From positions 54,229-118,228 of the IMG/VR virus record IMGVR_UViG_3300044675_001548: 64,000 nucleotides of DNA. One strand, 5' to 3'. The stretch is from a virus. Under the pieces are notes generated by a model. It saw only the letters and a list, made by a program, of their open reading frames with translations. It had not been told where the DNA came from and ran no database searches. The position numbers and the translations under genes are program-made. Of the stretch, positions 25,831 to 60,524 are shown piece after piece (position 1 is the first letter of the stretch; every line of letters begins with the position of its first letter).

Positions 25831-28800
25831 TTATTTAAGATTTTGGAATTGTTCATCTCTTCTTAATGCCCATATAGGAGATAGGTTCTTACCTTTAATA
25901 CCATAGATGCTTAATATGTGATTCCATAATTTATAGTCCCCTTCTTCTTGCCATGGATATGGTCCAGACTCTTGACGGTATACAGCCTTCTCACTACCGG
26001 TTGCCATGTAACCTAAATCTGCAAGTATCTTTAAGTAAAGACCAATAGTAGGACCAAATGCAATTGAAGTAGCATCTCCATATTTATACCATTCTTCTAG
26101 TCCGCCAACCCATGGTAATGGAATAAAAGATTGGTTCTCTCTTTTGGTTGCAATTAACTGATACAACATATGATTACCCATCCATCCAAAGTAACCATAG
26201 TCCTCTTCTCTCTTGGCTAGTTTCTGGAATCTATCTTCATCCTGAGGATCCCAACCAAATATAAGAGTTATAGCCATTGCCATTAATGCAAGTGTCATAC
26301 CTTCAGTAATCATTTTTCTGAATGCAGCTTTTTCTTCTTTAGTCATTACTGACCAATAAGCACCACCGGTTCTCAATGTTTTATACATTGCTTGGACACC
26401 TGCTATATAATATCCTTTTACAGGTGAACCTGCTTCCCAGTTGTACACATGACCCCAGCGGTTATTCTTAGACAAGTCTGTTTGGAATCTGTTTAGGAAC
26501 ATACCAGTAGCAAACTTTTTATAGAAAGTAAATAGCCTATATACAATATACTTCTCTGCTTGTGGAGAATCTAGTTCATCCATAGCACCATTAAGTCTTT
26601 TCTGTACATAATGGATCTTCAACTTGTAGTCATTGAAATTAGTATTTCTAGATACAACAAGTTCTTGTCCTTCAGTAAGCTTAGCACTAGGTTTGATTTT
26701 ATTCTTAGCGGCCAGCTCTTCAACAGACATACTATATTTTTTAGCTATAGCCTCTAGAGTTTCATTAGGAGCTACAGTATGGTCAACATATCTATTACCC
26801 CACTCAGGATTAATACCCTGTTTAAGAACTATTTCTTTTTTATCATTAAGTTCCCAAGCATCTATATACTTTATTTTCTTTACAGAACCATCTGGTTGGA
26901 TTTGTTCTATTTCTTTATGATACATCATACCACCCATTACTTGGAAAGCACCTTCAACCTCCATAAGTTTTCTAGCATCATAAGCCCAGGTAACATCAAA
27001 CATATCTCTGATAAAACTTCTAGTAGCAGATTTACCATAGTCCTTTTCTACTTTACCTATAACAGGGTCAAACATGTCTATCATTTGTAGGTTAAGTGAC
27101 TTAGCTCCTTTCTTATAGATACCTCCTCCGGTAAAACCTGCAAGCTCAATAGCTGATTGATATGCCCACATTCTACCAGAAGCAAATGAGATTGGGTTAT
27201 AGTAAACCCCAGCTGCAGCTTCAATAGAGTTCTGAACTATCATACCAAATCTGTTTTTCACAGCTGATACCAAGTCAAAAGCAATAAATGATCTACTTGC
27301 ATTGCTCATTAAGCTATTAGCAAACTTAAGCCACCCTGGATATTCAGATTCCCATGCACTATTTTTCTGGCCATAGAATGTCTTTTCTATAAAGTAATCT
27401 AGTGCAGCAGCTCTTCTGTTGTCTCCAGCTTTAAGAAAAGATAGTACACCAGTATTCTTAGCTACTTGCTTACTAGCTTTATTTAGATCTTTGATAGCAT
27501 TATCTGGATCATTCATTACAGATCTCAGTGTTTCAGCCTTGGCTTTTTCTTTTATTAGTACTCCCTGTTTGTTAAGTGAGTAGTTATACATGAACATAGC
27601 ACTTAATACATCTGTAGAAACTTCATTAAGTTCCATTTTGTATAAACCGTCTACTGGAATTCTGGCTATAGGTTGTCCCTCTAAGTCAGTTGATACTAAT
27701 AATGTATTAGGATTATAGTTTATACCAAAGTTTTGGTAGTCATCTTTTCTTTTTGCAAATGTAGATTTAACAGCTTCCCATGTAGCACTACCTTTTTCTT
27801 TAACATCAGACACAGCTTTTCCAGACTTAAGTAATTCTAAGTTACTAGCCTTTCTTCTTCTTGGTAAGTCAAGATAGAGTTTAGCTGAACCTGGTCTATT
27901 CTCCTGCATCTTTAACATGTACTCAGTTACTTTATCCAGTAAGTTTTTCATAGCAGGATTAGTAATAGCTTGAGCATATTCTTTATCCATGTACTTATCA
28001 TCATAGGCACTGTTTGGATCACCTGGTTTGTATTCTTTAGGAAGGTAGTTACCATCATTATCTATAATAGTACCAATATATTTTTTCTTAGCCTCAGCAT
28101 CAAACGGTACAGTAAAGTACTCTTCTTTGACTCTTTGGTAAGAATACTTAGGTCCCGGTACTCCATTGATAATTAATGGTTGTTTAGTAACAGGATGTAC
28201 TAGAGTAGTTTTCTTGTAATGATTTTCATCTACAGGTTTTACTGAAGTCCACATTCTAGTTCTAAACCACTTGTCTTCTTTTTGTTTGGTACTATTGTTC
28301 CAGACTTTTTTCTTGTAGTGGTTATTCTCAAACCATTCTGCAAACTCTGGATTAAGTTCCATTGCAGTATATAAATCTTCAGAGTTTATCCAGTCATCTG
28401 CATTCTCTAAAGTAATATGAGGAACCTCTGTATCACCCAGCATATTATTAAATGCTATATAGTAGTATTCAGTAGGTGTCTTTTGTGTCAAGCCTCTTAA
28501 ATCTGCAAACAGTTCTTTTAGCTTTTTGAACTCAGATTCAGACAGACCTAACTCATTTCTTCTTGCTGTAAGTTCATCATAATCAGTCTGTTCTGTAACT
28601 GATAAGTCATAACCTGCTGCAAGTCTTTCTTCATAAGCTTTGAGTTTATCAGCTTCTTCAGCAAGTAAACCAGACTTGGTATCTATTTTACTTTCTAAAT
28701 CAGTTATCTTTTCCTCAATGTCCTTCATAAGTTTAAACTGCTCAGGTTTATACTCAAGAGCATTAGTCTGACCGTTTCTATCAGTCACAAGATTAGATAA

Positions 28801-31662
28801 TGCAAATCTCTGACGGTATAGATCAGCTAACTCAGTAGCAATAGCAGACTTCTTACTTTTGCTAGTAAGGGTCTTTATCTCAGTCATTATAGTATCTCTA
28901 CTTTCATAGTAGCTTGGAGTATAGGCTACTCTAAAGTTTCTTTCCTCAAACTTTTCAAGAGCTTTTTGAAACTCTTCAGGATTAGATTCCATTGTAATTT
29001 TTCTAGCAGCTAGGTCCTGAACAAAAGAATCTAAATCTGTTTGTACTTTATCTTCATTAGGAATATACTCATAGAACTTACTAGACCTTCTTCTATATTC
29101 TAGTCTTACTAAAACTCTTTGGAGCTCTTCTCCAGTTTTAGGTTGACCCTTGCTATCATATATCTGGAATAACTCATTGTATCTTTTCTGAGCTTCATCT
29201 GCTTCAGTAAAGGTATAGATGTCATCCATAGTAGTAAAGTCCCGGCTTTTGTATACTATCATCTCACCAAGTGCTTTCTGTCTTTCAAGATAAGACTCAG
29301 TAGCTATAGTAGCAGGGATTGTTTCTACTTGTTTTGTAAATGGATTAGTGATTTTATTTTCTTGTTTCCAAATATCCTGCACAGCATAATACTCAGGAAC
29401 TTTTTCCTGATGCATATATTTCTTTTCCCAGTCCCACTTTCTTGCAAGAATTTCTTTCATTGCAGTCTTGTCTCCTTTTTCTTGAGCCTGTTGGAATTCA
29501 TATTCAAATCTATCTCTGTCAGCTCTCCATCCGTTACCAAATTTACTTTTGATTTTGTAGACTTCAAACTCTTCATACTCACCTTTATCATTTGTACTAC
29601 CTACTTTATCCACAGATAGTAAAGCTTGTCCTGATCTCTCAATGTTTGTAGGATTTAGACCTGCAGCTTGCATTAGTGGTATAAGTGTCTCAAGCATATC
29701 AGTCTCTTCTCTAAGGCTAACTTGCTCAGCATCAGATAGTTTTGTTTTCATAAATCTTACAAAACTACCTAGCGGATCATCAATGGACATGTATGGGTTA
29801 AGAAGTGATTCCATAATACCTATGTCTTCTGTATTACCTTCTATCCAATTGTTTAATGAATCTCTGGTAAGTCTTTTTTGATAGTACTCACCTACTTCTC
29901 TAACTAATTCTGCAGCACGGGCTGAATTGATTCCAGCACCCATGTCTTTAACAGTAACAGTCTTACCATCAGGATTAGATATAATCCTTTCTACAAGTTC
30001 ATCTATCTGAGCCTGTGGTATTTTATCCTGTTTAAGATAAGTATTGATTCTTTCAGTTAATCTTTTTTCAAGTTCATCTTGCATAAATGCAGTATTGTCT
30101 TCCATGAACTGAAGAGCATATTCCTTTTGAAGTTCTTTTACTTTATCTCTGGCAACAGAAACTATATCAGATATATCAGATACTTCTTTTACAAACTCAT
30201 TGGTTCTTGAGAGACCAATAGTTTTTTTGATAGCCTTTAAGAATTTATCTTGTCTAGATAAGAAGTCATTAAAGTATAAGATTTTTGATATACCATCTTC
30301 AGTTAAGTAACTGTCATTGTTCTCCATCTCATTTAGGATGTTCTCTATCTTAGTAGTAAAGACTTTTACCTGGGATAAACTTTCAACTAATGCAGTAGCT
30401 CTCACTCTGAATTCCTCTTGTTGAGCTTGTAATGCTTCTGCCACATCTTCAACAGGAACATCTTTTACATCAACATTTTGGTATCTAGCTAGGAAACCTT
30501 TAAGATTACTAAGTATAGCAAGACCACCTTCACCAACAAGTTCTTTCTTAAGTCTACCTGAGTCTTTCAATACTTGAATCTGGTACTTAGCCTCAACATA
30601 TGTTTGGTTGATGGCATTCTGTAGATTTTTAGTGCTCACATTTTGGAGAGCATCTACAAGGTCATCATACTCATTCTTCATCTCAGCATAGTCTGTCTGA
30701 TCAAACTTTAAGTTAGCTATCTTAATGTCCTCAAACAGTAACATGTCTGTAAGTTGATCTATGGTTGTATCTGACTTAAGATCTTTTACAGAAATTACTT
30801 TGGATATTTTTCTGAAGAGTTCTTTTATAGCATATACAAGCATGCTGATAAAGTTATTGAACTCCGGATCCTGTTGCTGAAGCTTATTGATTTTATTCTC
30901 AGCATCTCTCTCAAGAGATCTAACAAGAACTTCTTCCATAAATCTATCAGACTCAAACTGTAGATTAGGATATAGAGCCTTCACTTGCTCAATAATACTT
31001 TGGCCGGTAGCTGTAAGCTTGGCTTTGTTATACAAGTTATTAAATAACTTATTGTTTTGGATTGATATACCTTTAATAAAAGGGTGGGCAAACTCATGGA
31101 TCATTGTACCCATGTTAGCTTTACCTTTAACTAGATATACCATATTACCATAGTAAAACCCTGGTTGATTTTTATATGGAGTGCTTGTTCCAGATAATGT
31201 CTCAATTGCTTCCTCTTCTGTTATGTACTGATATGGTACATCTAAAGTAAGCATCATTTTTTCTGCAAGAGCATTAAGAACTTTCTCTGCTCTCTCCTGA
31301 CTTACATCCTCTTTATTAAACTCAAATGGAACTATGTCTGGCTTAGATCTTTCTGGTAAATAATCTGGTCTAAGATATGCATTCTCTTTATAGAAGATAC
31401 CTTTGAAAGCATCTATCTGATGAAACATTTCTTTGTTAGGTAAAGCTCTGGTTCCACCAAACTCTGGAGTAAACAACCTACCTTCAATACCATATTTCTC
31501 ATTAGCATACTTTGACCACTTAGAGTTGTATTCCAGAAATTTTTTGAAGTCCTGGATATTAAGGTACTTATCTACAATACCTAGTGATCTCATGTTAGCT
31601 TTAGTAGAGGCTTCAGAGGACTTAAATCTTAAATTCTTGTTTGTGCATGCAGACCTTGCCAT
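25831..31662 (-). CDS. Large virion/ejection-type polyvalent protein (zincin HExxH, LysM, C-terminal TM segment)
   Basis: HEFAH at 31084-31098; LysM HTVAPNETLEAIAKKYSMSVEELAAKNKI...GQELVV at 26650-26781; hydrophobic GMTLALMAMAITLIFGW. Confidence 0.75.
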   Translation of the reverse strand: MARSACTNKNLRFKSSEASTKANMRSLGIVDKYLNIQDFKKFLEYNSKWSKYANEKYGIEGRLFTPEFGGTRALPNKEMFHQIDAFKGIFYKENAYLRPDYLPERSKPDIVPFEFNKEDVSQERAEKVLNALAEKMMLTLDVPYQYITEEEAIETLSGTSTPYKNQPGFYYGNMVYLVKGKANMGTMIHEFAHPFIKGISIQNNKLFNNLYNKAKLTATGQSIIEQVKALYPNLQFESDRFMEEVLVRSLERDAENKINKLQQQDPEFNNFISMLVYAIKELFRKISKVISVKDLKSDTTIDQLTDMLLFEDIKIANLKFDQTDYAEMKNEYDDLVDALQNVSTKNLQNAINQTYVEAKYQIQVLKDSGRLKKELVGEGGLAILSNLKGFLARYQNVDVKDVPVEDVAEALQAQQEEFRVRATALVESLSQVKVFTTKIENILNEMENNDSYLTEDGISKILYFNDFLSRQDKFLKAIKKTIGLSRTNEFVKEVSDISDIVSVARDKVKELQKEYALQFMEDNTAFMQDELEKRLTERINTYLKQDKIPQAQIDELVERIISNPDGKTVTVKDMGAGINSARAAELVREVGEYYQKRLTRDSLNNWIEGNTEDIGIMESLLNPYMSIDDPLGSFVRFMKTKLSDAEQVSLREETDMLETLIPLMQAAGLNPTNIERSGQALLSVDKVGSTNDKGEYEEFEVYKIKSKFGNGWRADRDRFEYEFQQAQEKGDKTAMKEILARKWDWEKKYMHQEKVPEYYAVQDIWKQENKITNPFTKQVETIPATIATESYLERQKALGEMIVYKSRDFTTMDDIYTFTEADEAQKRYNELFQIYDSKGQPKTGEELQRVLVRLEYRRRSSKFYEYIPNEDKVQTDLDSFVQDLAARKITMESNPEEFQKALEKFEERNFRVAYTPSYYESRDTIMTEIKTLTSKSKKSAIATELADLYRQRFALSNLVTDRNGQTNALEYKPEQFKLMKDIEEKITDLESKIDTKSGLLAEEADKLKAYEERLAAGYDLSVTEQTDYDELTARRNELGLSESEFKKLKELFADLRGLTQKTPTEYYYIAFNNMLGDTEVPHITLENADDWINSEDLYTAMELNPEFAEWFENNHYKKKVWNNSTKQKEDKWFRTRMWTSVKPVDENHYKKTTLVHPVTKQPLIINGVPGPKYSYQRVKEEYFTVPFDAEAKKKYIGTIIDNDGNYLPKEYKPGDPNSAYDDKYMDKEYAQAITNPAMKNLLDKVTEYMLKMQENRPGSAKLYLDLPRRRKASNLELLKSGKAVSDVKEKGSATWEAVKSTFAKRKDDYQNFGINYNPNTLLVSTDLEGQPIARIPVDGLYKMELNEVSTDVLSAMFMYNYSLNKQGVLIKEKAKAETLRSVMNDPDNAIKDLNKASKQVAKNTGVLSFLKAGDNRRAAALDYFIEKTFYGQKNSAWESEYPGWLKFANSLMSNASRSFIAFDLVSAVKNRFGMIVQNSIEAAAGVYYNPISFASGRMWAYQSAIELAGFTGGGIYKKGAKSLNLQMIDMFDPVIGKVEKDYGKSATRSFIRDMFDVTWAYDARKLMEVEGAFQVMGGMMYHKEIEQIQPDGSVKKIKYIDAWELNDKKEIVLKQGINPEWGNRYVDHTVAPNETLEAIAKKYSMSVEELAAKNKIKPSAKLTEGQELVVSRNTNFNDYKLKIHYVQKRLNGAMDELDSPQAEKYIVYRLFTFYKKFATGMFLNRFQTDLSKNNRWGHVYNWEAGSPVKGYYIAGVQAMYKTLRTGGAYWSVMTKEEKAAFRKMITEGMTLALMAMAITLIFGWDPQDEDRFQKLAKREEDYGYFGWMGNHMLYQLIATKRENQSFIPLPWVGGLEEWYKYGDATSIAFGPTIGLYLKILADLGYMATGSEKAVYRQESGPYPWQEEGDYKLWNHILSIYGIKGKNLSPIWALRRDEQFQNLK

Positions 31663-31671
31663 ATCAATTAA

Positions 31672-34600
31672 TTATTCTCCTAAAAATGGATTAGTACAGT
31701 TATTATCTAGATCATCAGAGTCATCTTCTTCAGTATCTTTTCTCTCAGTAAAGTTAGTTAAATTTCCAGTGTTGTCAAGTTCTATTCTTGGTATACTACC
31801 AGTATGATATATAGTAAACTTAGCACCTATCTCTTGTAAGTAATCTATGAACTGACTGTCTACTCCCGGCATATCTCCTACTACAAACTCACCTCCATTA
31901 TTAAATGCTATTTCTATTTGATTTTTAGTTTCAGAACTAAGAGGTTTATTTTTTAATTCACCATTTCTTGCTAGCATTACCACTTTATTACCATCTACTC
32001 CAGTTTCTCTATATGCAACAACTGTTGGTGCATTATCAAAATAATCTAATGTATTATTGGTTTTATCCTTTTCATATATAGATTTGGCTGAAAAATTACT
32101 AGATGTTTGTTTATTTCTATCAAGTACTTCACCAATAAATCCATCAGCAATCTGTCTCATTGCTTTATCTTTACCATCACCTTGAGGAGTACCTTTACCT
32201 ACATTTTCAAATCCACCTTTATATCCTTGAAAGCCAGTACTTACAGGAGCTGTAGGTTGAGTAGATACAAACTGTTTAAATCCTTCTATATCTTGTTTAC
32301 CAGTTTGTTCTACATATTGAGAGTATAGTTGTTGAGCTTGCTGTTTTTGTTGTGGAGTTATAGGTGCATACACAGTCATAATGTTTATTCCTGCGTTTTT
32401 TAAAGAAAAATATCTATGATAACCATCATTTAATATACCATTAGAGTCAACAATTCCAGGTACTTTTTGCCCTTCTTTTTTTAAACTTTCAGTGTATTTA
32501 TTATTTTCTTCTTCACTTCTTTGTCCAAAATTACCTAATTTGATTTCAGATAAAGGTAATGTTTTTTTAACCCACCAAAAACCATTATTAGAATAGTTTT
32601 CTATAGTGCTTTCATCTTTGCTACCAAATACTTCATCAACCACATTATCTAATCTAATAAACCCAGCAGCTTCATATACAGCATTAGCTAATTCAGGATT
32701 AGAATCAAATAGTTCTGGTACACCTTCTTTAACTTCTCCTACTGGTTGTACAGTAGGTTGAGTAGGTTCTTCTCCAAATAAATTTAACTGAGTACCTGGT
32801 GTAGGTCCTTCTTCATCTGTTTCACTTTGTTCTTTTACAAGTTCATTGTAAATAAGTATCTGAGCAATAGCAAAGTTTGCAGTCTTTCTCTCTTTTATTT
32901 TAGTTTTTTCATTGTATTGTGGATACTTCTTTAAAAAGTCTTTTAAGAACTCTCTTGCACCATCTGCAGTTTCTTTTGTACTTTCAATTGGTTCATTAAT
33001 TTTTGATAATTCATCAAAGAATTCTATTATCTGGTCTTCATCATAAGATGATTGTATAAACCCTGGTGCAACCTCATTTGCAAGTTTAAGTGCTTCAGGA
33101 GATAATCTTCTGTTACCAGCTTCACTAAGTTTTTCAGCATCAAGCATGTATGACTTGAATGGAGTTTTAACTTGTGTAAGTCTATCAAATATAATTTGGA
33201 AAGCATTGTTATTCATGTAGTTATCTGAGAACACTTTAGAAGCATACTTCATTATGGTGTTATACTTATCTACAGGAAGAGCTGAATTAAATCCATATTT
33301 AGATTTACCTACACCATGCTGGTATACCATCATTTGTGGGAATAAACCAAAGACATCACTAATAACTTTATTTGATATTGGGTCTTCTACTTTCTTAATA
33401 TTAGGATCAGCAAGTTGTTTTATATTCTGTACATATATCTGAGCCTCTGATCCAGAGATAATTTTTCTGTCATTAAGAGTTAACATATTATCACCAGTCT
33501 TACTTGGTACTCTAGATATTTGTTCTAGTATTGGGAACTGTGCTTTTAGCTGAGGAAAATTCTTAATGATATTCATAATTTTATCAGTATATGAATGTTC
33601 ATTATCCTTCATTATTGCAGTTCTGTTGAATGTATTCATAAGAGCTTTATCTGCAAGATACATCTCTAAAGATGCTGCAGGTATTGTATCTTTATAAATA
33701 TCTCTTAAGTATTCTCTCTCTATGACATACTTTATAAAACTTGTTTTGTCTGGGAATAAAGCATCATCCTCTTTAAATGTCTTCAGACCTCTCTTAAAGT
33801 AAGAGTTATCTACCGCATTATTCTTACCAAGGTATAAGTTGTTATTATAGTCAGATTCAATTAAGTTATAGTTAACAGATATACCTGTTATTGTTCCTTC
33901 TGCATCTTTATTTATAATTACATCTTTCTCCTGGGAGTTATTACTAGTAACTTTATGACCTCTATAATCATCAGGTCTATTACTTATTTTACCATTGGAA
34001 TCTATAATATTGGACATATAGTTCTGGTAAATAAAGTTGATCATAGCATTCTTATATTCATCTATGAACCTAGAAGCACCATCTTTACCTTGACCAAAGT
34101 TAGCTTTGATAAGATCAGCATTTAATCTGATCTTAGACAATATAAAATCATTAAGTAATGTATTGTCTCTTAACTTAAACAATGGGTTAAGCATAGACAT
34201 GATGATTTCCTTGTCAAACAATGAACTAAGAACTGAATCAGTCTGTAGTGATGTCATTAAGGTTGGATCTACCTTAGAGTTATTAGCTAACAAATCAATG
34301 TTTACATCTCTATACAATATCTCTTGTGGGCTCTTAAATGTTTGAGTATCCGGTTTTGCATTTGACTTAGCAGTAGAAATACCTTTAAGTTGTTTTTCTA
34401 TTTCCAAGTAATGTAAGAACATAGAGATAGCAAGGTTGGAGTTTTCTTGACCTGGTTCTTTTACTAGTTTTTCCATGTCAGCCGAACTAAATACTCCATT
34501 CTTAAGAACATTTGGTTTGTTCACATAATTACTTACAGACTTAGCATACGTTGTACTTGTTATCTCAGGTTTAGTATAAAGTATTTTTGTCTGTGGACTA

Positions 34601-37600
34601 CCTGAGATTTTCTCAAGTCTTTTTATTAAAGATACTTCAAGGTTTCCGTTTCTGACCTCTTCTATAAATACCTCAACAGACATCCTGTTAACTTTTGGTT
34701 TAAAATCAAAAGGTCCTTGAGTAACAACAAACATATCACCTTTGTGCTCCTTAACAACATTTCTAAGCAATTGAGAAATTACTCCATTGACAACCATCTC
34801 AGCTGAGTTATACTTAACAAAGTTTTGATTTTTTGGAGCATCTCCAGTGAACTCACCATAAGCACTCTTTAATCTTTTTTGATTATCTACATACTGTCTT
34901 ACTAAAGGGTTGGAAACAAAGAAGATAGCATCTCTTACCGGAACCCCTGCTTTAAATAAATAGAACAGTGTACTAGCTACTTCCATGTTACCTTGAATAA
35001 AGAATATCCATGGGTTTTTCTCAACGTCCACAGTACCATTAATAGCCTGTGAAAATAATTCAGCTACACTATTAATACCATCAGCATCATAGATTTTTGA
35101 AAGGGATATTCTACCATCATCTGTTTTATTATGAGGTAGGAATAATCTCATTGGAACTTTTGGTTTATCTTTAAGTTCTACATCTCTTCCAAGTTTTTTA
35201 CTAAACTTAGTTAAGTAATAATCTTTTGGCATTGCCGCACCAATAGAATCAAAGACTGGACTGATAGCATTTTCATTAGCTGCAATACCAAGTACATCTT
35301 TACCTTCCATGTTTACACCATGCTTATGTACATTGTACAGTGGATGAAGTGTAATAGATGGAGTAATCTTTTTTCCATCTTTATCACCACCTACAAATCT
35401 ATCATAGTCACTTACTATGTTCTCAAGCTCTTCAGAAATGTCCTGTAAGATATATGTATCATTTGGTCTCACAAGGTTTACGTAATTATCTGGTAATTCA
35501 AGTACCCCTTTAATTGACTCAAGTATCTCATTCTCTGCAGCTTTCTTCTGTGCTTTAATCTGGCCAGCAAAACTTTTATTAGTCTTTTCTCTCTCAGCAT
35601 TTATCTTATTGATAAAGTCTTTGGTGTTTTCTTTACTAGTAACATATGTACCATCAGAAGCTATGTGTGGAAAGAATGTAGTTAACTTATCAACGTCAAA
35701 GTCACCACCAGACTTAGCAACAAGTTCAGATGGAACAAAGATCATGTTATCAGCACTAGGATCCATGAAATGATAAACCTCCATAAACTCCATAGAGTTA
35801 AGACCTTGAACTGGAATCCTAACAGCACTTAATGTAATTGACTTTCTGTTATCATCAGTATTAAGCCACTCTTCATCTTTGATAAGTTCATTAAGTCTTT
35901 GGATAGTACCTATCTTTTCACCCTTCCATTCTTTATTAAGTAAGTTATTGAACTCACCTTGGATACCAATGGAAACTTTCATGGCATTTGTATTACCATC
36001 TTTTCCGGGCTCATAGAAAGGAAGTGTATTACTACCTAGTAGTTTTTCTCTCTCAGCTTCAGTACCTTCAGTAAACTTAACACCACCAGACCACATACCT
36101 CTAGTAAGTGTACTTGATACTTGAACCAGTGCTTCACCATAAAGCTTTTGCTTAACAAATCTTTTCTCTACTATTGACATTATAGTCTTCTCAATTGTCT
36201 GAGCATCAAGATGTATTGACAAGTCATTTTTTAAAGTACCATCTTCATTAAGACCAATAGCCTCAACTAAATGTTCTGGCATATCTTTTCTTCTTAGCTC
36301 TCTTTGGATTAATCTAAGTAAGTTTTCAATATTACCTTTGTAACTATCACCTTCTTTCTTAAAGTTAATCTCATCAAGAAGCTCAAGCTTTAATAGATTA
36401 GTGTAGTTATCTACTGCAGCTTTATATCTATTAGCAGCAGACTCATTTTTAGTATTGATAAGTTTACCGCTTTCATATAGACCATTAAGAAGTAGTTTTC
36501 TTAACTGAGTTGCAAATACAACTTTACCTTTAGAATAATCTGGAACACTAGCTGATTCTTTAAGATACTCTACATATACAGTATTAGGAGTAAGAGTCAG
36601 TTTGTCCTTTATAATCTTTTGCTCTTTGTCAGCAAAAATGTTATCTGGTTTCCCGTCAGCAGTAACACCACCAACTTTAGATCCACTGGCAAATGTTGCA
36701 TACTGAATATTGTTTCTCAACATTTCATGATGTAGTGTCTCTAAGTCAGATCCTTTAATTACAGATGGTATTAAAGGCATAAGAGCAAACTTATGCATTG
36801 CTGTTACAGGTAACACTGTACCAGCTAAGTTACCATAGTTCTGCAACTTAAATACAGGGAAGAAATTTACAACATCTGCTGCTGTAATCTCTTGACGAGC
36901 TACTATTTTTTTATAAAGTGCTTCTTGCTGATCACTCCACTTATTCATACCCTTCTTAAGTGTACGGTATGCATCAATTGTAATATAACCTTGACCATCA
37001 GCCTCAGTCATGTTCAAGTACTTATCAGCTTCAATCTTAACTCTCTTCTCTACTTCTTCTGCAGCATTAGGTTTACCAGCATATCTTTTTTCATAATCCT
37101 CTCTGATAGCTTTTTCAATAATTGGTTTGTAAATACTATCTCTATCTGCATCCTGCATAATAGCTGTATTAACAGTACCATTGTAAGTAAACTTAACATA
37201 GTCTGAGCTACCTACAGTTTTAGCATAAGCATTTCTATCCCATGTAAATCCAGTTTCTTTACTGTTGACATCATTTATGAAATCTCTAAATGCTTTGTCA
37301 GTTCTGATTTTTGGTCCACTGGAAATAGCTCCTGAAGTTCTTTTATGAAACTCCTCTTTCTTATGATTGAACTGTGCAATGTCTCCAAAAATAACTTGAG
37401 ATATTTCAAAGTTATGAATCCAAGCATTATACATATAAGCTTTAGCAAGTATTCTTTCTTTTTCAGAGTTAGTTAGATTAGGTACATTTAATCTATCCAT
37501 GACAGTTTTATCTATATACTTAGCTTTTTGTAAGTATTCATAGACTTCTTCTGTACTATCATTAAAGTATTTAGTTACTCTTTGTTTTATTCTATCATAA

Positions 37601-40600
37601 AGCTTAGGATCATTTTTAATATAATCCTTTAACTTCACACCAGGTTTATTAACCACAGCTAGAATATCATCTTGTAAATCTTTATCAAGTATAGAATCAA
37701 AGTACACATATGACTCTCCATACATTTTACCATCCTTAAACTCTCTGTTATAACCAGTATAGTTCTTAGCTATAGAAGAGTTTTTAAATCTGTTGATTCT
37801 TTCAGTCTCTGCAGATATGTAAGGCAGAATAATATTGTCAAATGCAAATGATTCAGCATTACCCTCTGGTAAAAACTTATCTAAATCAACATAGTATCTT
37901 GGGTCTTTTCTATCACCAATCTCAGACATAATTCCACCTTCTATTCTCAAAGCCATAGCTGTAGACTTAGATCCAGCTCTTAGGAACTCCTGTAAACCAC
38001 CTTTAAAGAATGTGTGGAACTCCTGTAAGAATTTACTGTACTGATCTAATGATGTAGTATTAGTACCAATAGACTTGGTAATTTTATTTCCTTCATCATC
38101 TTCAACAGTGAACTCAGCAATTTGAGTACCCATGTCAAGTATTAAGTCAAGAGATCTGCTTGTTCTTCTTGCTTTCTCAGGCTTGCTTAAATCAAATAAG
38201 GATTTAGTAATTTGTAAGTCTTCAACAAAAGGATTTACTGCAGGATTGAATGAGCTCATATATTTTAACTCATCTTTTTTCCAGAAGTCTTCAAGCTTGG
38301 TAGCTTGATTAAAACCATTAATGATCATACTAGCACTACTATGCTCTATATGTTTGTTCACTAAGTTTCTTTCTGGGTTAAGTGCTGTAAAGTTAGAGGC
38401 ATCAACACCATACTTAACTTGTAATCCAGCTATCTTCTCAACAAAGTTTTTCTGTTTAGAACCTGCCGTATATACAAAGCTAGATGGTGGTCCAATAATT
38501 TGAGGTGAGATACCTTTTATTAAGGTAGCTAAAGGATCTTTCTTAAACTCAGAGATAACATCAGCAGCTGCTTTACTTACAGTCTTAGCATTCTCACTAT
38601 AGCTTATAGCTTTTATTGTATTGAATATATAATTAACACCATATTTTTTTACACCCTGTATACTATTGAGCTCATCCTTTATAACTTTGAGGTCATCAAG
38701 ATAGAAGCCCATTGCATTTAGGAACTTAAATGTTTTATCTGGGTCTAAGTTACCATTAGCATCTGAAAAGTTTCTTATTAATGCTGTTACATTTAACATA
38801 GATTGATTATCTATTCTTTCTATGTATGCATCTCTAGTATCAGCTTTAAATCTGTTACCAAATTCTCTAATAGTATTTGCTACATCTACGGCAGCATTTG
38901 TAAGTTCAGTTATGATACTTCCATCATCTTGTTTGAATCCAGTTAACTGTAGCAATGTAGCTGCAGGTTTCTGGAATGTTTGCCACATAGAAGTGATAAT
39001 GTCATTCTCTGCAGGAGTAGTAGGTAGTGATGGATCAGGTATCTTGTTTAACAACTGTTCAAACTCAGGATATATTTTTGAAGCCTCAACAATTGCAGTA
39101 TACATTTGCTTTGGATCAGTAATACCATTCAAAGTTCTTACAGTGTTTTTCCAGTTTTGGTTAAAGTTACCTAAGTCTTTGAAGCCTAGTTTGTTATTAG
39201 TAGTTATAAACTTAGTACCTTTCTTAGTTTGTTTAAATAAACTTTTTAAGATATAAACTATCTCTTGGTCAGCCATCTCTAATAGAGACATTTCACCGGC
39301 TTTCTTTTCAAACTTTTCACTAGCTGTTGCATCACCAGTTGCATCTTTCTCAGCATCTATATCAGTAACTTTTTGTCTGATAAGATCAAATCTACTATTC
39401 TCAATATGATACTTTATAACACCAGTAGTTGGATCACCCCAGTTGTTTAGAGCAGTCTGTAGAATTCTTACATTGTCTAATTCTTGACTTTGCTCATATG
39501 GTACTTCTGGTAATGTATTTACTACATCTTCATTAATATCTATTGAGGTAAATGTTTTGGCTTTCCCTTTAATATAATTATCATACTGGTTCTTAGCCTC
39601 TTCAATATCTGTAACTATTAATATATCAGCAGGCTGATCATTAATATTATTAACAGCCTTATGTTTGTAAAAGTCTGAGATTATCTCTATGGTTTCTTTA
39701 TATAATTCACCCTTCTGTCTAGTTCCCGCTTTTGTATCTAAATCTAAGTTATTATAATCATCAATCTGAGATCTTAAGAACACATATTTATGATTACCAT
39801 CTTTGTCTCTGATAACAGCTGCAGCATTTTTCTCTAATGCATCAGCATCTTGGAAGCTATTAAAAGGTTTCTCTGGCATGTATGTGATCTTACCAGGACC
39901 TTCTCCTTGTATTTGTCTAAGTCTTTCTTGAAATCTTTGTCTTACAAGTTCATATAACTGAACTTTGTTCTCAGATTTGGTCAAAAGTTTTAGAGTACCG
40001 GACTTACCATAGTTATTAGATGGGTCATTGTTTACCTCATCAACTATTTCTGATATAACAGAATCTATAGACTCAGAAACTAGTACAGCATCTTGTTTAT
40101 TTAATGAATCCTCCTTAGGTTGACTAACATTATTGATACCTCTGTTAAGTATATCAAACATTACATTATCTACAAGTGGAGTGTATATGTTCAATAAATT
40201 TGGGTTCTCACCAGCCATATACAGTCTGTAAAATAATTCATTAACTGTATCACTCTGTTCTGCTAAATTTGGAGACATGTCTTGTACTCCAGGTATACCA
40301 AATAACTTTTTAATAAAGTTCCAGATCTTTCTGAACAATGTATTTCTTACTGGAGAACCTTTCTTAGTCTTTTGATTTAGTGCATATTTCCTAAAATCCT
40401 CAGCTAAGAGTTCTTCCATTTCACGGAATGAATAATTTTGAACAAGGCCTGTTTCAAACACCTCAGCATATAAAGCTTTCTTCTCATCTCTGGTTAAATA
40501 TAACTGAGAGAATCCATGCCATGCTTCATGATATACATCAGTGAATGAACCTGACTTGTATATTTCTATCTTAGCAGGTTTACCACCATTAGCAAGAGTA

Positions 40601-43161
40601 TTACCGTCAACTATAAATCTGGCATATGCATCAGAGTTAACTATGTTTGCTAAGTGTGATAACTCAATATATTTGTTTAGTGGAGATTTGGTCCACCATT
40701 CTTTGGCATCATCTATTTGTTTAGCTGTAACACCTTTTGGTAAGGTAATCTTTCTATCAAGACTAAACAGACCACTAATACCAGTACCTTTATCTGAAGG
40801 TTGAGAAACATTAGGGTTGTTTATTACCTTATTAACTTGTTCCTCAACTGAGGTTTTTGGCTCTACTTTTTCTTCAACTATATCTCCTGGTTCTGCAGTG
40901 TAATCTCTTTCAGGCTCATCTTTTGCATAGTCAGTCTCAGCAGCCTGTCCAAGTAATACACCCTTCTTATCTCCTGTATAATCAAATACTTGTACTACAT
41001 CTGGTATAACTTTATTATCTACAGTTATAGTAGCAACTTCAAGAAGAACTTTCTGTCCATGCTTTGGAAATTTAAAGTTCTCAGATTCCTGTTTTTGCTC
41101 CAAGTATATTTTAACTCCTTGGCCTTCTTTGATTGGATTAGCAATCTTAAAGTTAGCATATGGTTTACCATCAACAGTGGTTCCTGCAGCAGTTGCTCCA
41201 ATAGTTGTAGTAGTCATACTCTTTGTAGATGAAGCTTTGATAGCATCAGCAAGATCATCTTTGTTAGTTCTTACAACAGATTTCTTTTCAGCATCTTCTT
41301 TGGCCTTTTCAGCAGCAGCATCTATCTTTTCACTAAGTTCTGTTGGAACTCTGAATCTCATATATGAGTTATAGAAAGGCACAGCCTTAGCACCATTTAT
41401 AAATATCTGAGCAGGAAGAGTAGTTAAGAAATCTAGGTAGTTAGCAGGAACTAATTTACCATCTTGAAAGTCAAGATATACTTCTTGATCCAATGCTGTA
41501 TCATCATATCTGATCTTGGCTGGGAATTTTGCACCACTAGCACTAGACTTACCTGACATAAGTATCTTATAAATATCTTCTTCAGCTGTAGGTGACTTTA
41601 AATCTATAGCTTGTCTTTTATTAGACTGAGCTTTAGCTTTGTCTGCTTTCATTTCTTGTTCAGTATATGTATCATATGTAAACAAGAACTGTCCTTTTTT
41701 AAATGCAGCATAGTGTCTTTTAGTACCAAAGAATCCTTTGTCTACAAAGAACTGTGAGTAGTAAGTATTCTTATCTTCATCAGATAAGCTAGATGTAAGA
41801 GCCTTAGCTATCTTTCTTGCTAAGTCTTCTGTTATATCTGATCTATCTACCTTATATGTTTCACCTTCAATGTTTAATACTGCAGCACCGGCTTCAAATC
41901 CTTTTGATGGAGTATTAAGTATTATCATACTACTTAATATCTCATTACTATTCATAGGAAATTGTCCGGTAAGGTTCTGTAAAGTTACCTTTTGATTAGG
42001 GTCAGTTTTAATTCTAACACCTGTTGAGATACTAGTTAACTTAAGTAACTTTGATTTACCTCCTTCTACAATAGAGTTTCTTAACTCATATAGAGCTTTG
42101 AATTGTTTTTGTTGATCTTCAGCAAGACCTTTTACAAAATCAGTAAATGACATCTTTTCACCCTTTTCAAATGCAGCCTTGTCTTTGTAACCCATGAAGT
42201 TCATCATGTTCTCAGCAATCTGTTCAGGAGTTTGAATTTGATCTGTTCTACCATAGATATCAGTAACTCTATATTTGTTACCTTCTTTTCTGGCATCACG
42301 CATCATTTGGTAAACTATTCTACCACCTTTTTCTTTAGTGGACACATTACCATTATTGTCAAAGTAAATGTAGTTTCCTTTCTCATCAGTAACCACTAAA
42401 GCAACAATCTCATTTGGTTTTTTTACTTTAGGATCCGGATTCTTAATGCTATTAGCTCTTAGTACAAAGTTATTACTGTACTCAGTTCTATCATTTACTG
42501 AAAGCTTAGATAGTAATATTGTTTTTAGTTTCAAGGTTTTACCCTGGAAAACAAAATCAGTATTAAGATCTCTGCCTAAATCATTTCTCATCTCATCATT
42601 TATCTTTCTAAGAGTAGCATAGATATATGATTTGTCTGGGTCTATTTGTTCTGCAAAGCTTTCAGGTTTTTTATTTGGATCTACTGTAAGATACTCTTCA
42701 AATGTAGAGCTAAAAGCACTGTCTGCTTTGTAATCATCTGTATCTTTAAACTCTGGTCTTGGTTTAACCGGGACAGGTTCTTCATCTTCACTAGCCTCTT
42801 CTTCTGCCTCAGCTATAATACTAAGTTGTTCTGGTGTTAAACCTCCACTAACCATTTTAAGAGTTTCAGCATAACCAGTCTCCGGGTTCATCAATGTTCT
42901 AGCTAGATTTCTAAGATCAGTCTCTGGACTTATCTCAACATCATCTAGTCTATAGCTTAATATACCAGCAAGATAAGGTATTGCTTGAACATACTCAACA
43001 GCAGGGCCTTCACCCTGTCTTTCTCTAAGTTGCTCATATAGTCTAGACATTAAAGTTCTAACATCAAAGGGTGTTCCTTCAGGAACATTTTGCATGTTTT
43101 TATAAACTACAGCATATAATACCTCCAACTGCTGGTTTCCCAGTGTACATGTAATAGCCAT
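31672..43161 (-). CDS. Giant virion-associated DNA-dependent RNA polymerase (crAss-like), with zincin, ParB/Srx-like and SLOG-like accessory domains
   Basis: RIPxQ at 35812-35820 and GGDFDVDK (DxDxD, 35689-35703); also EADGQGY and TQLRK segments; HEAWH at 40516-40530. Confidence 0.88.
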   Translation of the reverse strand: MAITCTLGNQQLEVLYAVVYKNMQNVPEGTPFDVRTLMSRLYEQLRERQGEGPAVEYVQAIPYLAGILSYRLDDVEISPETDLRNLARTLMNPETGYAETLKMVSGGLTPEQLSIIAEAEEEASEDEEPVPVKPRPEFKDTDDYKADSAFSSTFEEYLTVDPNKKPESFAEQIDPDKSYIYATLRKINDEMRNDLGRDLNTDFVFQGKTLKLKTILLSKLSVNDRTEYSNNFVLRANSIKNPDPKVKKPNEIVALVVTDEKGNYIYFDNNGNVSTKEKGGRIVYQMMRDARKEGNKYRVTDIYGRTDQIQTPEQIAENMMNFMGYKDKAAFEKGEKMSFTDFVKGLAEDQQKQFKALYELRNSIVEGGKSKLLKLTSISTGVRIKTDPNQKVTLQNLTGQFPMNSNEILSSMIILNTPSKGFEAGAAVLNIEGETYKVDRSDITEDLARKIAKALTSSLSDEDKNTYYSQFFVDKGFFGTKRHYAAFKKGQFLFTYDTYTEQEMKADKAKAQSNKRQAIDLKSPTAEEDIYKILMSGKSSASGAKFPAKIRYDDTALDQEVYLDFQDGKLVPANYLDFLTTLPAQIFINGAKAVPFYNSYMRFRVPTELSEKIDAAAEKAKEDAEKKSVVRTNKDDLADAIKASSTKSMTTTTIGATAAGTTVDGKPYANFKIANPIKEGQGVKIYLEQKQESENFKFPKHGQKVLLEVATITVDNKVIPDVVQVFDYTGDKKGVLLGQAAETDYAKDEPERDYTAEPGDIVEEKVEPKTSVEEQVNKVINNPNVSQPSDKGTGISGLFSLDRKITLPKGVTAKQIDDAKEWWTKSPLNKYIELSHLANIVNSDAYARFIVDGNTLANGGKPAKIEIYKSGSFTDVYHEAWHGFSQLYLTRDEKKALYAEVFETGLVQNYSFREMEELLAEDFRKYALNQKTKKGSPVRNTLFRKIWNFIKKLFGIPGVQDMSPNLAEQSDTVNELFYRLYMAGENPNLLNIYTPLVDNVMFDILNRGINNVSQPKEDSLNKQDAVLVSESIDSVISEIVDEVNNDPSNNYGKSGTLKLLTKSENKVQLYELVRQRFQERLRQIQGEGPGKITYMPEKPFNSFQDADALEKNAAAVIRDKDGNHKYVFLRSQIDDYNNLDLDTKAGTRQKGELYKETIEIISDFYKHKAVNNINDQPADILIVTDIEEAKNQYDNYIKGKAKTFTSIDINEDVVNTLPEVPYEQSQELDNVRILQTALNNWGDPTTGVIKYHIENSRFDLIRQKVTDIDAEKDATGDATASEKFEKKAGEMSLLEMADQEIVYILKSLFKQTKKGTKFITTNNKLGFKDLGNFNQNWKNTVRTLNGITDPKQMYTAIVEASKIYPEFEQLLNKIPDPSLPTTPAENDIITSMWQTFQKPAATLLQLTGFKQDDGSIITELTNAAVDVANTIREFGNRFKADTRDAYIERIDNQSMLNVTALIRNFSDANGNLDPDKTFKFLNAMGFYLDDLKVIKDELNSIQGVKKYGVNYIFNTIKAISYSENAKTVSKAAADVISEFKKDPLATLIKGISPQIIGPPSSFVYTAGSKQKNFVEKIAGLQVKYGVDASNFTALNPERNLVNKHIEHSSASMIINGFNQATKLEDFWKKDELKYMSSFNPAVNPFVEDLQITKSLFDLSKPEKARRTSRSLDLILDMGTQIAEFTVEDDEGNKITKSIGTNTTSLDQYSKFLQEFHTFFKGGLQEFLRAGSKSTAMALRIEGGIMSEIGDRKDPRYYVDLDKFLPEGNAESFAFDNIILPYISAETERINRFKNSSIAKNYTGYNREFKDGKMYGESYVYFDSILDKDLQDDILAVVNKPGVKLKDYIKNDPKLYDRIKQRVTKYFNDSTEEVYEYLQKAKYIDKTVMDRLNVPNLTNSEKERILAKAYMYNAWIHNFEISQVIFGDIAQFNHKKEEFHKRTSGAISSGPKIRTDKAFRDFINDVNSKETGFTWDRNAYAKTVGSSDYVKFTYNGTVNTAIMQDADRDSIYKPIIEKAIREDYEKRYAGKPNAAEEVEKRVKIEADKYLNMTEADGQGYITIDAYRTLKKGMNKWSDQQEALYKKIVARQEITAADVVNFFPVFKLQNYGNLAGTVLPVTAMHKFALMPLIPSVIKGSDLETLHHEMLRNNIQYATFASGSKVGGVTADGKPDNIFADKEQKIIKDKLTLTPNTVYVEYLKESASVPDYSKGKVVFATQLRKLLLNGLYESGKLINTKNESAANRYKAAVDNYTNLLKLELLDEINFKKEGDSYKGNIENLLRLIQRELRRKDMPEHLVEAIGLNEDGTLKNDLSIHLDAQTIEKTIMSIVEKRFVKQKLYGEALVQVSSTLTRGMWSGGVKFTEGTEAEREKLLGSNTLPFYEPGKDGNTNAMKVSIGIQGEFNNLLNKEWKGEKIGTIQRLNELIKDEEWLNTDDNRKSITLSAVRIPVQGLNSMEFMEVYHFMDPSADNMIFVPSELVAKSGGDFDVDKLTTFFPHIASDGTYVTSKENTKDFINKINAEREKTNKSFAGQIKAQKKAAENEILESIKGVLELPDNYVNLVRPNDTYILQDISEELENIVSDYDRFVGGDKDGKKITPSITLHPLYNVHKHGVNMEGKDVLGIAANENAISPVFDSIGAAMPKDYYLTKFSKKLGRDVELKDKPKVPMRLFLPHNKTDDGRISLSKIYDADGINSVAELFSQAINGTVDVEKNPWIFFIQGNMEVASTLFYLFKAGVPVRDAIFFVSNPLVRQYVDNQKRLKSAYGEFTGDAPKNQNFVKYNSAEMVVNGVISQLLRNVVKEHKGDMFVVTQGPFDFKPKVNRMSVEVFIEEVRNGNLEVSLIKRLEKISGSPQTKILYTKPEITSTTYAKSVSNYVNKPNVLKNGVFSSADMEKLVKEPGQENSNLAISMFLHYLEIEKQLKGISTAKSNAKPDTQTFKSPQEILYRDVNIDLLANNSKVDPTLMTSLQTDSVLSSLFDKEIIMSMLNPLFKLRDNTLLNDFILSKIRLNADLIKANFGQGKDGASRFIDEYKNAMINFIYQNYMSNIIDSNGKISNRPDDYRGHKVTSNNSQEKDVIINKDAEGTITGISVNYNLIESDYNNNLYLGKNNAVDNSYFKRGLKTFKEDDALFPDKTSFIKYVIEREYLRDIYKDTIPAASLEMYLADKALMNTFNRTAIMKDNEHSYTDKIMNIIKNFPQLKAQFPILEQISRVPSKTGDNMLTLNDRKIISGSEAQIYVQNIKQLADPNIKKVEDPISNKVISDVFGLFPQMMVYQHGVGKSKYGFNSALPVDKYNTIMKYASKVFSDNYMNNNAFQIIFDRLTQVKTPFKSYMLDAEKLSEAGNRRLSPEALKLANEVAPGFIQSSYDEDQIIEFFDELSKINEPIESTKETADGAREFLKDFLKKYPQYNEKTKIKERKTANFAIAQILIYNELVKEQSETDEEGPTPGTQLNLFGEEPTQPTVQPVGEVKEGVPELFDSNPELANAVYEAAGFIRLDNVVDEVFGSKDESTIENYSNNGFWWVKKTLPLSEIKLGNFGQRSEEENNKYTESLKKEGQKVPGIVDSNGILNDGYHRYFSLKNAGINIMTVYAPITPQQKQQAQQLYSQYVEQTGKQDIEGFKQFVSTQPTAPVSTGFQGYKGGFENVGKGTPQGDGKDKAMRQIADGFIGEVLDRNKQTSSNFSAKSIYEKDKTNNTLDYFDNAPTVVAYRETGVDGNKVVMLARNGELKNKPLSSETKNQIEIAFNNGGEFVVGDMPGVDSQFIDYLQEIGAKFTIYHTGSIPRIELDNTGNLTNFTERKDTEEDDSDDLDNNCTNPFLGE

Positions 43162-46100
43162 TACTCACAAATATTTTGGTTAAATAATCTTTCTTCTAAG
43201 TCTTCAATACTCATTGAATCTGCCTCAGCTTCAATAGCATCTAATCTATTAAAGTCTTTTACAAACTCATCAATATTTGCTTTGGACTTAGCAACTATAT
43301 CTTGTTCTTTTTTAGTTAAAGGTTTTTCAGTTGTAGCTTTCATGTCTTCTAGACTATCTTTTAAAGTTGTTAATGCATTTACTTGTGCAAATGTAAGGTT
43401 TTCTGTTTTCTTACCTCTAGCTTTTCTAACAGTAACTCCTGTATCACTTACATCAGTTATCACTAAAGTATTTCCATAAATGGCCCACTTAGCCCCTCTT
43501 ATAAATATAGGTGTTTTTACAATAAGTTTGTCATTTTCTTTAAGATTTTCTTTATTTAATTTCAGAACTCCTTCAGATAATGAGTCAAGTTTCTCTTGTA
43601 ACTGGTTAGATAATTCAACAACTTCTGCCGCACTCAGTTTCTTAACAGCTTTATTTAAACTAGCTTGTGCTGCTTTAATAGAATCTTTAGATTTGGCAAG
43701 TCTGATCTTCATTGCAAGTTGTGCAGCCATATCAGGATCTCCTTTTCCAACACCAATAGGTTTTTCTTCAAGAGTTTCTTGAGCTTTAACTGCAGGTGAC
43801 GGAGCATCATCAGCATCTTGTCTTGGAATGCTTTCTAGATTAGCGGCCTCAGCAGATTCTTTAGACTCAACAGCCACACCTTTTCTAGGTATAATAGAGT
43901 CAATTTCTTTCTGGTAAATGCTTTTATCTAATGGTATCTCATATGAACCTGGTAATAATCCTGAAGCAACTTTTGGAGACTGTGCACTTAGTACTTTACC
44001 TGTCTCATCATCTTTAGTTATTTCAATTGGGAATATACCTATAGAGGCATTAAGACCTGTCATATTGAATAACAAGTTAGCATAGGCTGTTTGCTGTAAG
44101 ATATAGTCTTTTTGTTTTTGGTAGCCAAATTTCTTTTTGTCCTGGAAGTTATTCCATTTACTAGCCTCACCTGTTTTAACGTCAACTATCTTAACATTAC
44201 CATCTCTGTCTACTATGATGATATCTATCTCACCGGCTATACCAGCATCCTTGTCAAATACTCTGATGTCTTTGGTATATACAGCAATCTCATTTCTATC
44301 AAACTTAGCTTTAAGATCTGTAACAATACCTTCTGGACCAAACAAATTGTTATATGCTATTCTGGTTATGCTGTTTTCATCATATACAGCTTTACCTATC
44401 TTAGGGTCAAATATGTTTTTGATTTGGTTATCAATGTAGTTACCTGCAATTCTAGAAGCTTCATAAGTCTTCTCTTTGACTATAGCCATAACCTCATTTC
44501 TAATCTCATCTGAAAGACTACTTGTGTCTCCACTTGTTTGAGCTGATGGGTCTTGATACTCTATTGATATAAAACTTGCATCATCATTTTTATGATTTTT
44601 TCTAAAGTCATCAAAATTTAAGCTCTTTCCAAAACCTGCTTTTATAAAGTCTTGTATTGCTTCTTTAGTTTCAATAAAGTCAGATGCTAAAACAAGTCTT
44701 TCACCAGGTTTAAGTTCAACTGTATATTTTGATATCTTTTTAGCAGGCTCAGCACTTGTGTTACCATTAGAATCAACACCCCATGTAAAGCCATCTACAA
44801 AAGGTGAAGTACTCAGACCTTCTGCTTGTCTTATGTTATTATTTTTATCTACTACAAAAAAAACAGCATCACCTACATGTTCAATCTCATATTTATTATT
44901 ACTAACTCTTTGAGCTTTTACACCAACAGCACCAACAGCTCTTGTTAACCAGCTATCTTTATCAGTTATAGATTCTGGATCTTTTAAAATTCTAAGTAGA
45001 CCATTTATAGCAATTATAGTAGGATCCGCAAGACCAGAAAAACTTGTATTATCAAACTTTACAGAATCTGAAATAAAACCATTACTCTGTAATAGTTTAA
45101 ATATTTCTTCTGTAGTAACTTGATTGTTTGCTTTATAAGCATTTGCTATAATATCAAAAGGATTTTTTTCCTTAACACCTCTAAATTGATTTATCATCAA
45201 TCTAGCAGCATCATGTGGCTGAAAGAAAGGTACTTTATTTACTCCACCCATTCCATCAGCAACAATAAATACACCTTTGTTATTATCTACAAAAACTGCA
45301 TCTTGATTCTGTCTAGATGAATCTTTACCCATTTTACCAGCAGCTCCAAAAATAACCCCATCTTCCTCTTTTATTTCAGCTTCGGTTGGCTGGAAAATAG
45401 TTGATGTTTTAGTAGCTTTTGGTTTACCACCTTTTAAAGTAGGTAAGATTTTTTCTAATTCTCTTTTTAGTTCATTGTATGTGTACTCACTAAAGCCACC
45501 AGGTCTTTTAGTTCTTAAGTCTGTAATGAAATCTTCTACAGACTTTCCTTTTACAAGTGTCTGATTTACAGATGCTAGCACTTTAGTTTCATCTGAATAA
45601 GAATACTCAGTTACACCAAGCTCTTCAATAGCTTTAGTAACCCTTCTCATCAATTGATTTTCTACATAGTAGGCTTCATTAATTTTTTCAAGCTTAGACT
45701 GAGCATCAAACACAAGTTGTAGTCTATTGATAGTCTCTTGCATTTTTTCAGATACCTCTTTAGTATCTCTACTCTTAAGGTATCTATCAATCTTTGCTTT
45801 ATCGGCCTTAGCTTCTGCTAGCATTAAGTTCTCATCAGGAGTTCTCTTATCCTTATTCTGCATATTGTTAATCTGCATCATAAGCAACTGTCTGTTCTTT
45901 TTAATTACAGACTCTGGCTGATCAGTTAGATCAACTTCTTTACCTGATAATTTTATAACTAATTTTTCTGGAACTCCTGTGACTTCAGTAGCAGCAGTAA
46001 GTTTAGACTTTTTATTATACTCATCAATAATTCTTCTAGCTACACCACTTGTTCTAGCAAATGCTCTAAGCTCATTAAAGAACTGCTCATCATCAAACTC

Positions 46101-60497: not shown

Positions 60498-60524
60498 TAA
60501 ACTACTAAACTTATTAAGTTTAAT
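60498..60524 (-). promoter_or_regulatory. Candidate late-gene regulatory motif, copy B (contains inverted repeat TAAACTT-N3-AAGTTTA)
   Basis: On the - strand ATTAAACTTAATAAGTTTAGTAGTTTA; similar to 53368-53396. Confidence 0.4.

Follow-up and report, generated by a model that had tools for sequence, protein, structure and literature searches.

The window considered here is a 64,000-nt stretch of viral DNA (positions 54,229 to 118,228 of the IMG/VR record IMGVR_UViG_3300044675_001548), the minus strand of which carries a run of giant genes that includes the three genes referred to below as A, B, and C (Table 1). No phages are more abundant in the human gut than the crassviruses, and it is an open question how such podovirus-like phages pass megadalton protein cargo, including an RNA polymerase (RNAP), through a narrow tail. 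The subject of this report is the placement of cysteine in the products of the three genes. The start codon of B overlaps the stop codon of A (TAATG). By synteny with phage phi14:2, gene A sits where phi14:2 g067 and crAss001 gp47 sit, and the position of gene C matches that of phi14:2 g065 and crAss001 gp49.

Table 1. Features of the RNAP cargo block and its surroundings in the window
Feature	Position (nt)	Strand	Product	Remark
Gene A, first of the RNAP cargo block	43161..49964	(-)	2267 aa, 252.9 kDa	Sole Cys is residue 2266
A-Cys2266 codon	43167..43169	(-)		Penultimate residue (...NQNICE-stop)
Gene B, virion RNAP homologue	31672..43161	(-)	3829 aa, 432.5 kDa	Cys only at 5 and 3822
B-Cys5 codon	43147..43149	(-)		MAITC...
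DFDVD catalytic motif, two-barrel RNAP	35689..35703	(-)		B residues 2487-2491
B-Cys3822 codon	31696..31698	(-)		8th residue from end (...NNCTNPFLGE-stop)
Gene C, last of the block	25831..31662	(-)	1943 aa, 224.3 kDa	Sole Cys is residue 6
C-Cys6 codon	31645..31647	(-)		MARSAC...
C zincin-type HEFAH motif	31084-31098			Residue 189
C LysM domain	26653-26781			Pfam
Protein upstream of A	49982..53350	(-)	1122 aa	Cys-free; marks the outer end of the chain

Translation and counting returned only four cysteines in the 8039 residues of A, B, and C, namely A-2266, B-5, B-3822, and C-6. The same residues and codons had been named in a first-pass annotation made from the letters of this DNA alone, and re-derivation of the codons reproduced them exactly. 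Counting also confirmed two further statements of that annotation, that the 1122-aa protein upstream of A is free of cysteine and that the outer termini of the trio carry none, and the summed mass of 909.7 kDa agrees with its estimate of ∼0.9 MDa. The junction between A and the 1122-aa protein has cysteine on neither side, and the 1595-aa and 932-aa proteins further upstream also lack this residue. The cysteine content of the other open reading frames (ORFs) of the window is 1.10%. For four randomly placed cysteines, the chance that all would fall in the four facing terminal intervals is ∼9e-10.

The central part of B matched phi14:2 g066 (E = 5e-10), crAss001 gp50 (E = 7e-9), and cr108_1 (E = 1e-27) in tblastn searches. 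B also carries the GxDFDxD motif, the three aspartates of which (D437, D439, and D441 of the first sequence in the alignment) are invariant in seven phages. No PHROGs or Pfam family was found for B, and a phmmer search gave no PDB sequence match; the homology of B to gp66 therefore rests on the tblastn matches and the motif alignment. For C, homology to crAss001 gp49 is transitive only, with cr118_1 gp15 matching both gp49 (5e-36) and the C protein of the window (1e-7), and Pfam recognized nothing in C other than LysM. Three giant co-oriented genes in the order A-B-C end the virion module in the window, in phi14:2, and in ∼100 related loci, and in phi14:2 the trio likewise comes after the genes for tail and cargo proteins. 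Deposited phage records gave no megablast match to the region; within IMG/VR, three relatives share 90-96% identity and many others 26-60%. The source is a divergent environmental crAss-like phage, and A, B, and C are RNAP-associated cargo proteins that are most likely packed in the particle and injected. Their homologues in phi14:2 and crAss001 have been detected as virion proteins by mass spectrometry (PMC10172136 for crAss001).

B shares homology and the DFDxD motif with g066 and gp50, but the window protein is far longer (3829 aa versus 2180-2412) and the identity in the catalytic region is only ∼21-27%. A further difference concerns a zincin-like domain with an HExxH motif, which in the window lies within B at about residues 845-960 (HEAWH at residues 878-882, window positions 40516-40530) but in crAss001 has its counterpart near the C terminus of gp47 (residues 2100-2257). 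Where A and B are fused, as in cr108_1, cr118_1, and cr4_1, this domain stands directly before the polymerase part. Judged from these placements, domains have been redistributed across the A/B boundary.

The conservation of the cysteine pattern was assessed in 105 IMG/VR loci and 14 annotated Crassvirales genomes, a sample that leaves out Crevaviridae and certain further families. Cysteine information played no part in calling the chain of genes at the polymerase locus, and clustering on the catalytic region with an 80% identity threshold gave 75 non-redundant lineages. A junction was scored for cysteine within 12 residues of the upstream C terminus and within 10 residues of the downstream N terminus. 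L-numbers below are locus labels (L028, cr108_1; L033, crAss002; L035, cr4_1; L120, cr53_1); one locus, L010, was kept out of the tallies and follows the rule when read with code 11. Across the 75 lineages, cysteine was present on both sides of all 52 A-B junctions and of all 69 junctions between B and the next protein, as well as of all 11 extra-link junctions once homing-endonuclease ORFs were set aside. By contrast, the junctions upstream of A had cysteine on neither side in any of 14 cases (0/28 termini), and none was found at the C terminus of C (0/45) or the N terminus of A (0/12). Outer and control termini taken together thus showed cysteine at 0 of 85 positions, a difference from the facing termini with a Fisher p value of ∼1e-83 when termini are treated as independent.

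Within the same proteins, internal cysteines numbered 48 in 457,062 residues (0.0105%) as against 268 terminal ones; relative to the 1.1% in the other genes of the window, internal cysteine is suppressed ∼100-fold. The terminal cysteines occupied positions 3-6 from the N terminus and -1 to -10 from the C terminus, mostly -1 to -4. In an alignment of the last 150 residues of A from 50 lineages (16% mean column identity), cysteine formed the sole invariant column, and in the first 400 residues of B, also from 50 lineages (18% mean column identity), Cys5 was nearly invariant, as were Pro62 and Gly381. Given that the position of the cysteine shifts and that both cysteine codons occur at the conserved terminal sites, selection must act on the residue. 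The first-pass annotation had staked its proposal on the terminal cysteines being conserved and co-varying across crAss-like orthologues, and they were so throughout.

Several loci that had the appearance of exceptions proved not to be. Gene C of L024 is interrupted, with a first piece of 128 aa that starts with MAC; at L024:18091-18654, this ORF (MACNSRENT) is followed by ∼180 nt and then by the rest of C in another frame, which an intron, a frameshift, or faulty assembly could explain. The junction ORFs of L082, L095, and L106 that lack terminal cysteines are GIY-YIG homing endonucleases. For crAss002 gp33, the annotated start (L033, 8788-8890) is probably 32 codons early, and initiation at Met33 gives MSCTPS, in agreement with all other polymerase N termini.

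The two cultured phages phi14:2 and crAss001 show a terminal cysteine pattern identical to that of the window. In phi14:2, cysteines lie at residue 1797 of g067 (the last residue), at residues 3 and 2179 of g066, and at residue 3 of g065; in crAss001, they lie at residue 2339 of 2341 in gp47, at residues 5 and 2404 of 2412 in gp50, and at residue 5 of gp49. In crAss001, cr128_1, cr85_1, DAC15, and cr126_1, the A gene is found on the opposite strand beyond C, and in all five genomes both its C-terminal cysteine and the N-terminal cysteine of B are kept. Because the pattern holds with the A gene on the other strand, the rule acts on the protein and not on the DNA. In cr108_1, the polymerase gene, which the annotation gives as two separate hypothetical proteins, is interrupted by ∼290 nt (L028, 21806-22097) inside the catalytic DFDID motif (...AKAGSD followed by ...YDIDKMY), in a manner that resembles an intron or other insert. 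This break is not a protein boundary, and no cysteine is present on either side of it. The cargo genes of cr4_1 (L035) and cr53_1 (L120) each contain 18-40 in-frame TAG codons and end in TAA, which is consistent with TAG reassignment in the late genes of these Suoliviridae.

Some relatives encode the joined products as a single gene. The N-terminal parts of the A+B fusions of L088, L104, L110, and L111 are homologous to A proteins, and L114 was taken as an A+B fusion from the point at which B homology begins. The fusion proteins of L088, L104, and L110 (4187-4665 aa) have one cysteine each, at the C terminus, and the protein that follows begins with cysteine in L104 and L110; no downstream ORF was recovered at the L088 locus. 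Further A+B fusions occur in the Suoliviridae cr118_1, cr4_1, cr53_1, and cr10_1 and in the Steigviridae member cr108_1, where the B-C pair is kept and the pair at the fused junction is absent. No cysteine lies near the fused A+B junction in cr118_1, cr53_1, cr10_1, cr108_1, L111, or L114. Conversely, B and C are fused in the Intestiviridae crAss002 and cr8_1, with the A-B pair alone kept, and crAss002 has no cysteine between residues 2141 and 3118. The region is too divergent for blastp, and the fused junctions could therefore be placed only to within ∼100-300 residues. In the same way, breakpoints in L047, L045, and L038, which have a longer B and a shorter C, could not be placed on the window proteins by blastp, and cr108_1 could not be aligned to cr111_1.

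The reverse event was also observed. At least 12 lineages have an extra ORF (X) of 165-782 aa between B and C with exactly two cysteines, one per end. Their matches identify these ORFs as split-off N-terminal parts of C. The X protein of L082 has 396 aa, with Cys3 and Cys395, and shares 61% identity with residues 1-380 of the C protein of L011, which is unsplit and in which Cys3 is the sole cysteine and none is present at the point matching the L082 split. Likewise, the X protein of L074 matches residues 1-563 of L069 C, and that of L106 matches an internal, cysteine-free part of the B protein of the window. Given that fusion is accompanied by the absence of exactly both facing cysteines with the other pair intact, the pairing is between facing termini. 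Accordingly, arrangements in which A is paired with C, or B is closed on itself, were rejected. The first-pass annotation had joined the C terminus of A to the N terminus of B and the C terminus of B to the N terminus of C, and this assignment is well supported by the restriction of cysteine to facing ends and by the behavior of fused and split relatives.

Mobile elements were seen at some of the split sites. GIY-YIG homing-endonuclease genes (PF01541, above cut-off) are located at L082:15712-16305, L095:12361-13050, and L106:10024-10641; in L082 and L106, they occupy the split site between X and the rest of C, and in L095 they lie between B and C. The protein ends that flank these inserts keep their cysteine pair, and in L082 the insertion coincides with the split of gene C. 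The new N terminus of the split C protein in L082 is a ∼100-aa P-loop module (GTSGSGKS; L082:16308-16709). This module recurs at 58-66% identity in L107 A (residues 780-876), L098 B (2383-2488), and L060 B (3083-3179) and, as these placements suggest, moves between cargo proteins.

An experimental parallel exists outside the crassviruses. In the pre-ejectosome of cyanopodophage A4 (Anabaena phage A-4L), studied by electron cryomicroscopy (cryo-EM; PNAS 2025), gp27 and gp26 are disulfide-bonded through terminal cysteines (PMC12002296). The sole cysteine of A-4L gp27 is residue 1715 of 1717 (position -3), and that of gp26 is residue 5 of 1114, so that, as in the window trio, consecutive ejection proteins carry their only cysteines at facing ends. 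A4 differs in having one link as against a chain of two to four, in lacking an RNAP, and in that no evolutionary rule was described; its bond was reported to stabilize an ordered pentameric assembly. Homology of A4 gp26 and gp27 to A, B, or C was not detectable (best blastp E = 0.38), and the resemblance is therefore functional and not by descent. In the Schitoviridae (N4 gp50-52 and DEV gp71-73), ejection proteins are without cysteine, which has been ascribed to passage through the oxidizing periplasm (PMC11445570). These N4-like phages resemble the crAss-like ones in combining a giant virion RNAP with co-ejected proteins and in the near elimination of cysteine, as seen internally in crAss cargo; they differ in that the termini are also cysteine-free, the RNAP fold is unrelated, and a single giant protein is present instead of a linked set. 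Against such a general loss of cysteine from ejected proteins, the retention of exactly the facing terminal ones is telling.

The first-pass annotation had presented the linkage as one not known to have been described. For Crassvirales this stands, in that a full-text literature search found no paper describing a terminal cysteine linkage; it does not stand for phages at large, given the end-to-end disulfide between ejection proteins published in 2025 for A4, which was the only precedent found. A study of the phi14:2 polymerase (bioRxiv preprint) describes the fusion of the three proteins in some phages and does not mention cysteine, nor are the terminal cysteines mentioned in the structural study of crAss001 (PMC10172136), and a 2026 paper on N4 refers to the crassvirus ejection proteins as unresolved.

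Taken together, we consider it most likely (probability roughly 0.65) that in the particle A, B, and C are held end to end by their sole cysteines, probably through disulfides, as one thread. Here, A-Cys2266 would bond to B-Cys5 and B-Cys3822 to C-Cys6. The termini would first dock noncovalently, with the disulfide forming on oxidation once the particle is in an oxidizing medium. The link would replace a peptide bond, such that the three products act as one polyprotein of ∼0.9 MDa, and, with a cysteine no more than 10 residues from each joined end, the joint would stay thin enough for an unfolded thread to pass along the tail channel. Each protein would then pull the next one out, and reduction in the host cytoplasm would separate the parts and free the polymerase. 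The chemistry of the bond, the ordered threading, and the release by reduction are what we infer from the pattern. A disulfide is plausible because A4 provides an experimental example with the same signature, and structural disulfides are reported in crAss001 virions, where they are confined to tail and portal-vertex proteins (PMC10172136). Recombinant gp66 is active in dithiothreitol, from which it follows that the terminal cysteines are not catalytic. Bayfield et al. argued that crAss001 cargo must partly unfold and that gp45 exits N to C (PMC10172136).

Several points weigh against this interpretation. The lineages are related, and the tallies therefore overstate the number of independent events. 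A lone cysteine occurs near the roughly placed fused junction in two genomes (cr4_1 Cys2180 and cr8_1 Cys2380), and these were counted as ambiguous. In the cryo-EM analysis of crAss001, gp47, gp49, and gp50 were listed as unresolved cargo (PMC10172136). Assembly in a reducing cytoplasm and the anoxic gut life of many such phages leave the oxidation step in doubt. Finally, Drobysheva et al., in the phi14:2 polymerase preprint, suggest that the fused polyproteins are cleaved, in which case a permanent tether would be dispensable.

The alternative that survives best is that the disulfides only lock a static cargo assembly within the capsid and that ejection needs or follows their dissociation. 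Such a role has been proposed for the pre-ejectosome of A4, in which the bond stabilizes the C-terminal helix that one protein places into a cleft of its neighbor (PMC12002296). A stabilizing bond, however, could sit anywhere, whereas the cysteines here are within 6 residues of the N terminus and 10 of the C terminus, and in relatives with fused or split genes the link and a peptide bond replace one another exactly, which a linear thread fits better. The crAss001 maps, moreover, contain no ordered density for these proteins. On balance, a purely static lock appears unlikely.

A shared metal ion (zinc, iron, or copper) or another cysteine-dependent contact could join the facing termini in place of a disulfide, with extra ligands supplied by neighboring residues or, in the manner of the Rad50 zinc hook, by another copy of the junction. 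The two thiols of each junction can serve as ligands, the reducing cytoplasm in which the particle is assembled would allow such a site to form, and acidic residues often adjoin the C-terminal cysteine of B (e.g. EEDPFxC). Neither terminus, however, has a conserved histidine or second cysteine, by which a metal site is disfavored. In addition, the cysteines of a block number 2, 4, 6, or 8, always in pairs, which is a misfit with a single shared Cys4 node, and the only solved example of the signature, A4 gp27-gp26, is a disulfide. We regard metal coordination as more unlikely still.

That the terminal cysteines have separate roles with no pairing between neighbors, such as forming homodimers, attaching to some other part of the virion, or acting as a packaging signal or redox switch, is highly improbable: nothing specific speaks in its favor, and it would leave unexplained why outer termini never carry cysteine, why both facing cysteines are jointly missing on fusion with the other pair kept, and why both new ends carry cysteine on fission. 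Chance, an annotation artifact, or a DNA-level junction signal such as translational coupling, to which the location of the four cysteine codons of A, B, and C within 25 nt of gene boundaries might point, is already refuted by the data: the chance probability is ∼1e-9 in the window alone, and the pattern is retained where protein identity has fallen to 16-30%, with positions that shift and either codon in use, persists with the A gene on the opposite strand away from B, and is absent from the non-boundary insert within DFDID of cr108_1. Lipidation and a CaaX box were rejected along with the DNA-level signal. A split intein or protein trans-splicing was also rejected; none of the three proteins has a Hint or intein family according to Pfam, and cysteines 1-10 residues from the ends leave no room for intein fragments.

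A wider proposition, advanced here only tentatively, is that the crAss RNAP cargo is in general one ejected polyprotein in which breaks, wherever placed and including those at homing-endonuclease insertions, are rejoined by terminal disulfides, and which may leave the particle as a single thread of up to ∼1 MDa, to be separated, with the polymerase freed, by reduction in the host cytoplasm. If an end-to-end link of this kind exists, a covalent but reducible tether would offer a concrete mechanism, open to testing, by which the cargo is packed in stoichiometric amounts, delivered in order, and released, and would explain how these genes can be fused, split, or relocated without functional loss. 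A single structural observation in a cyanophage would then become a rule across a whole order. In practical terms, the rule marks true protein boundaries and start codons in giant, poorly annotated genes.

Other features of the proteins in this run were recorded. Residues 1901-1980 of A gave a weak PD-(D/E)XK nuclease match that falls under the Pfam cut-off (17.1 versus 22 bits). Two genes upstream of A, a 756-aa protein (window positions 53410-55680, minus strand) contains six cysteines, all within residues 382-476; crAss001 gp45 (cargo protein 1), which occupies the same relative position, has Cys390 and Cys398. At the start of the gene run, the 932-aa protein (window positions 60520-63318, minus strand) shows a SET-domain match (PF00856) at residues 38-81, with a score of 36.1 bits against a cut-off of 22.4.

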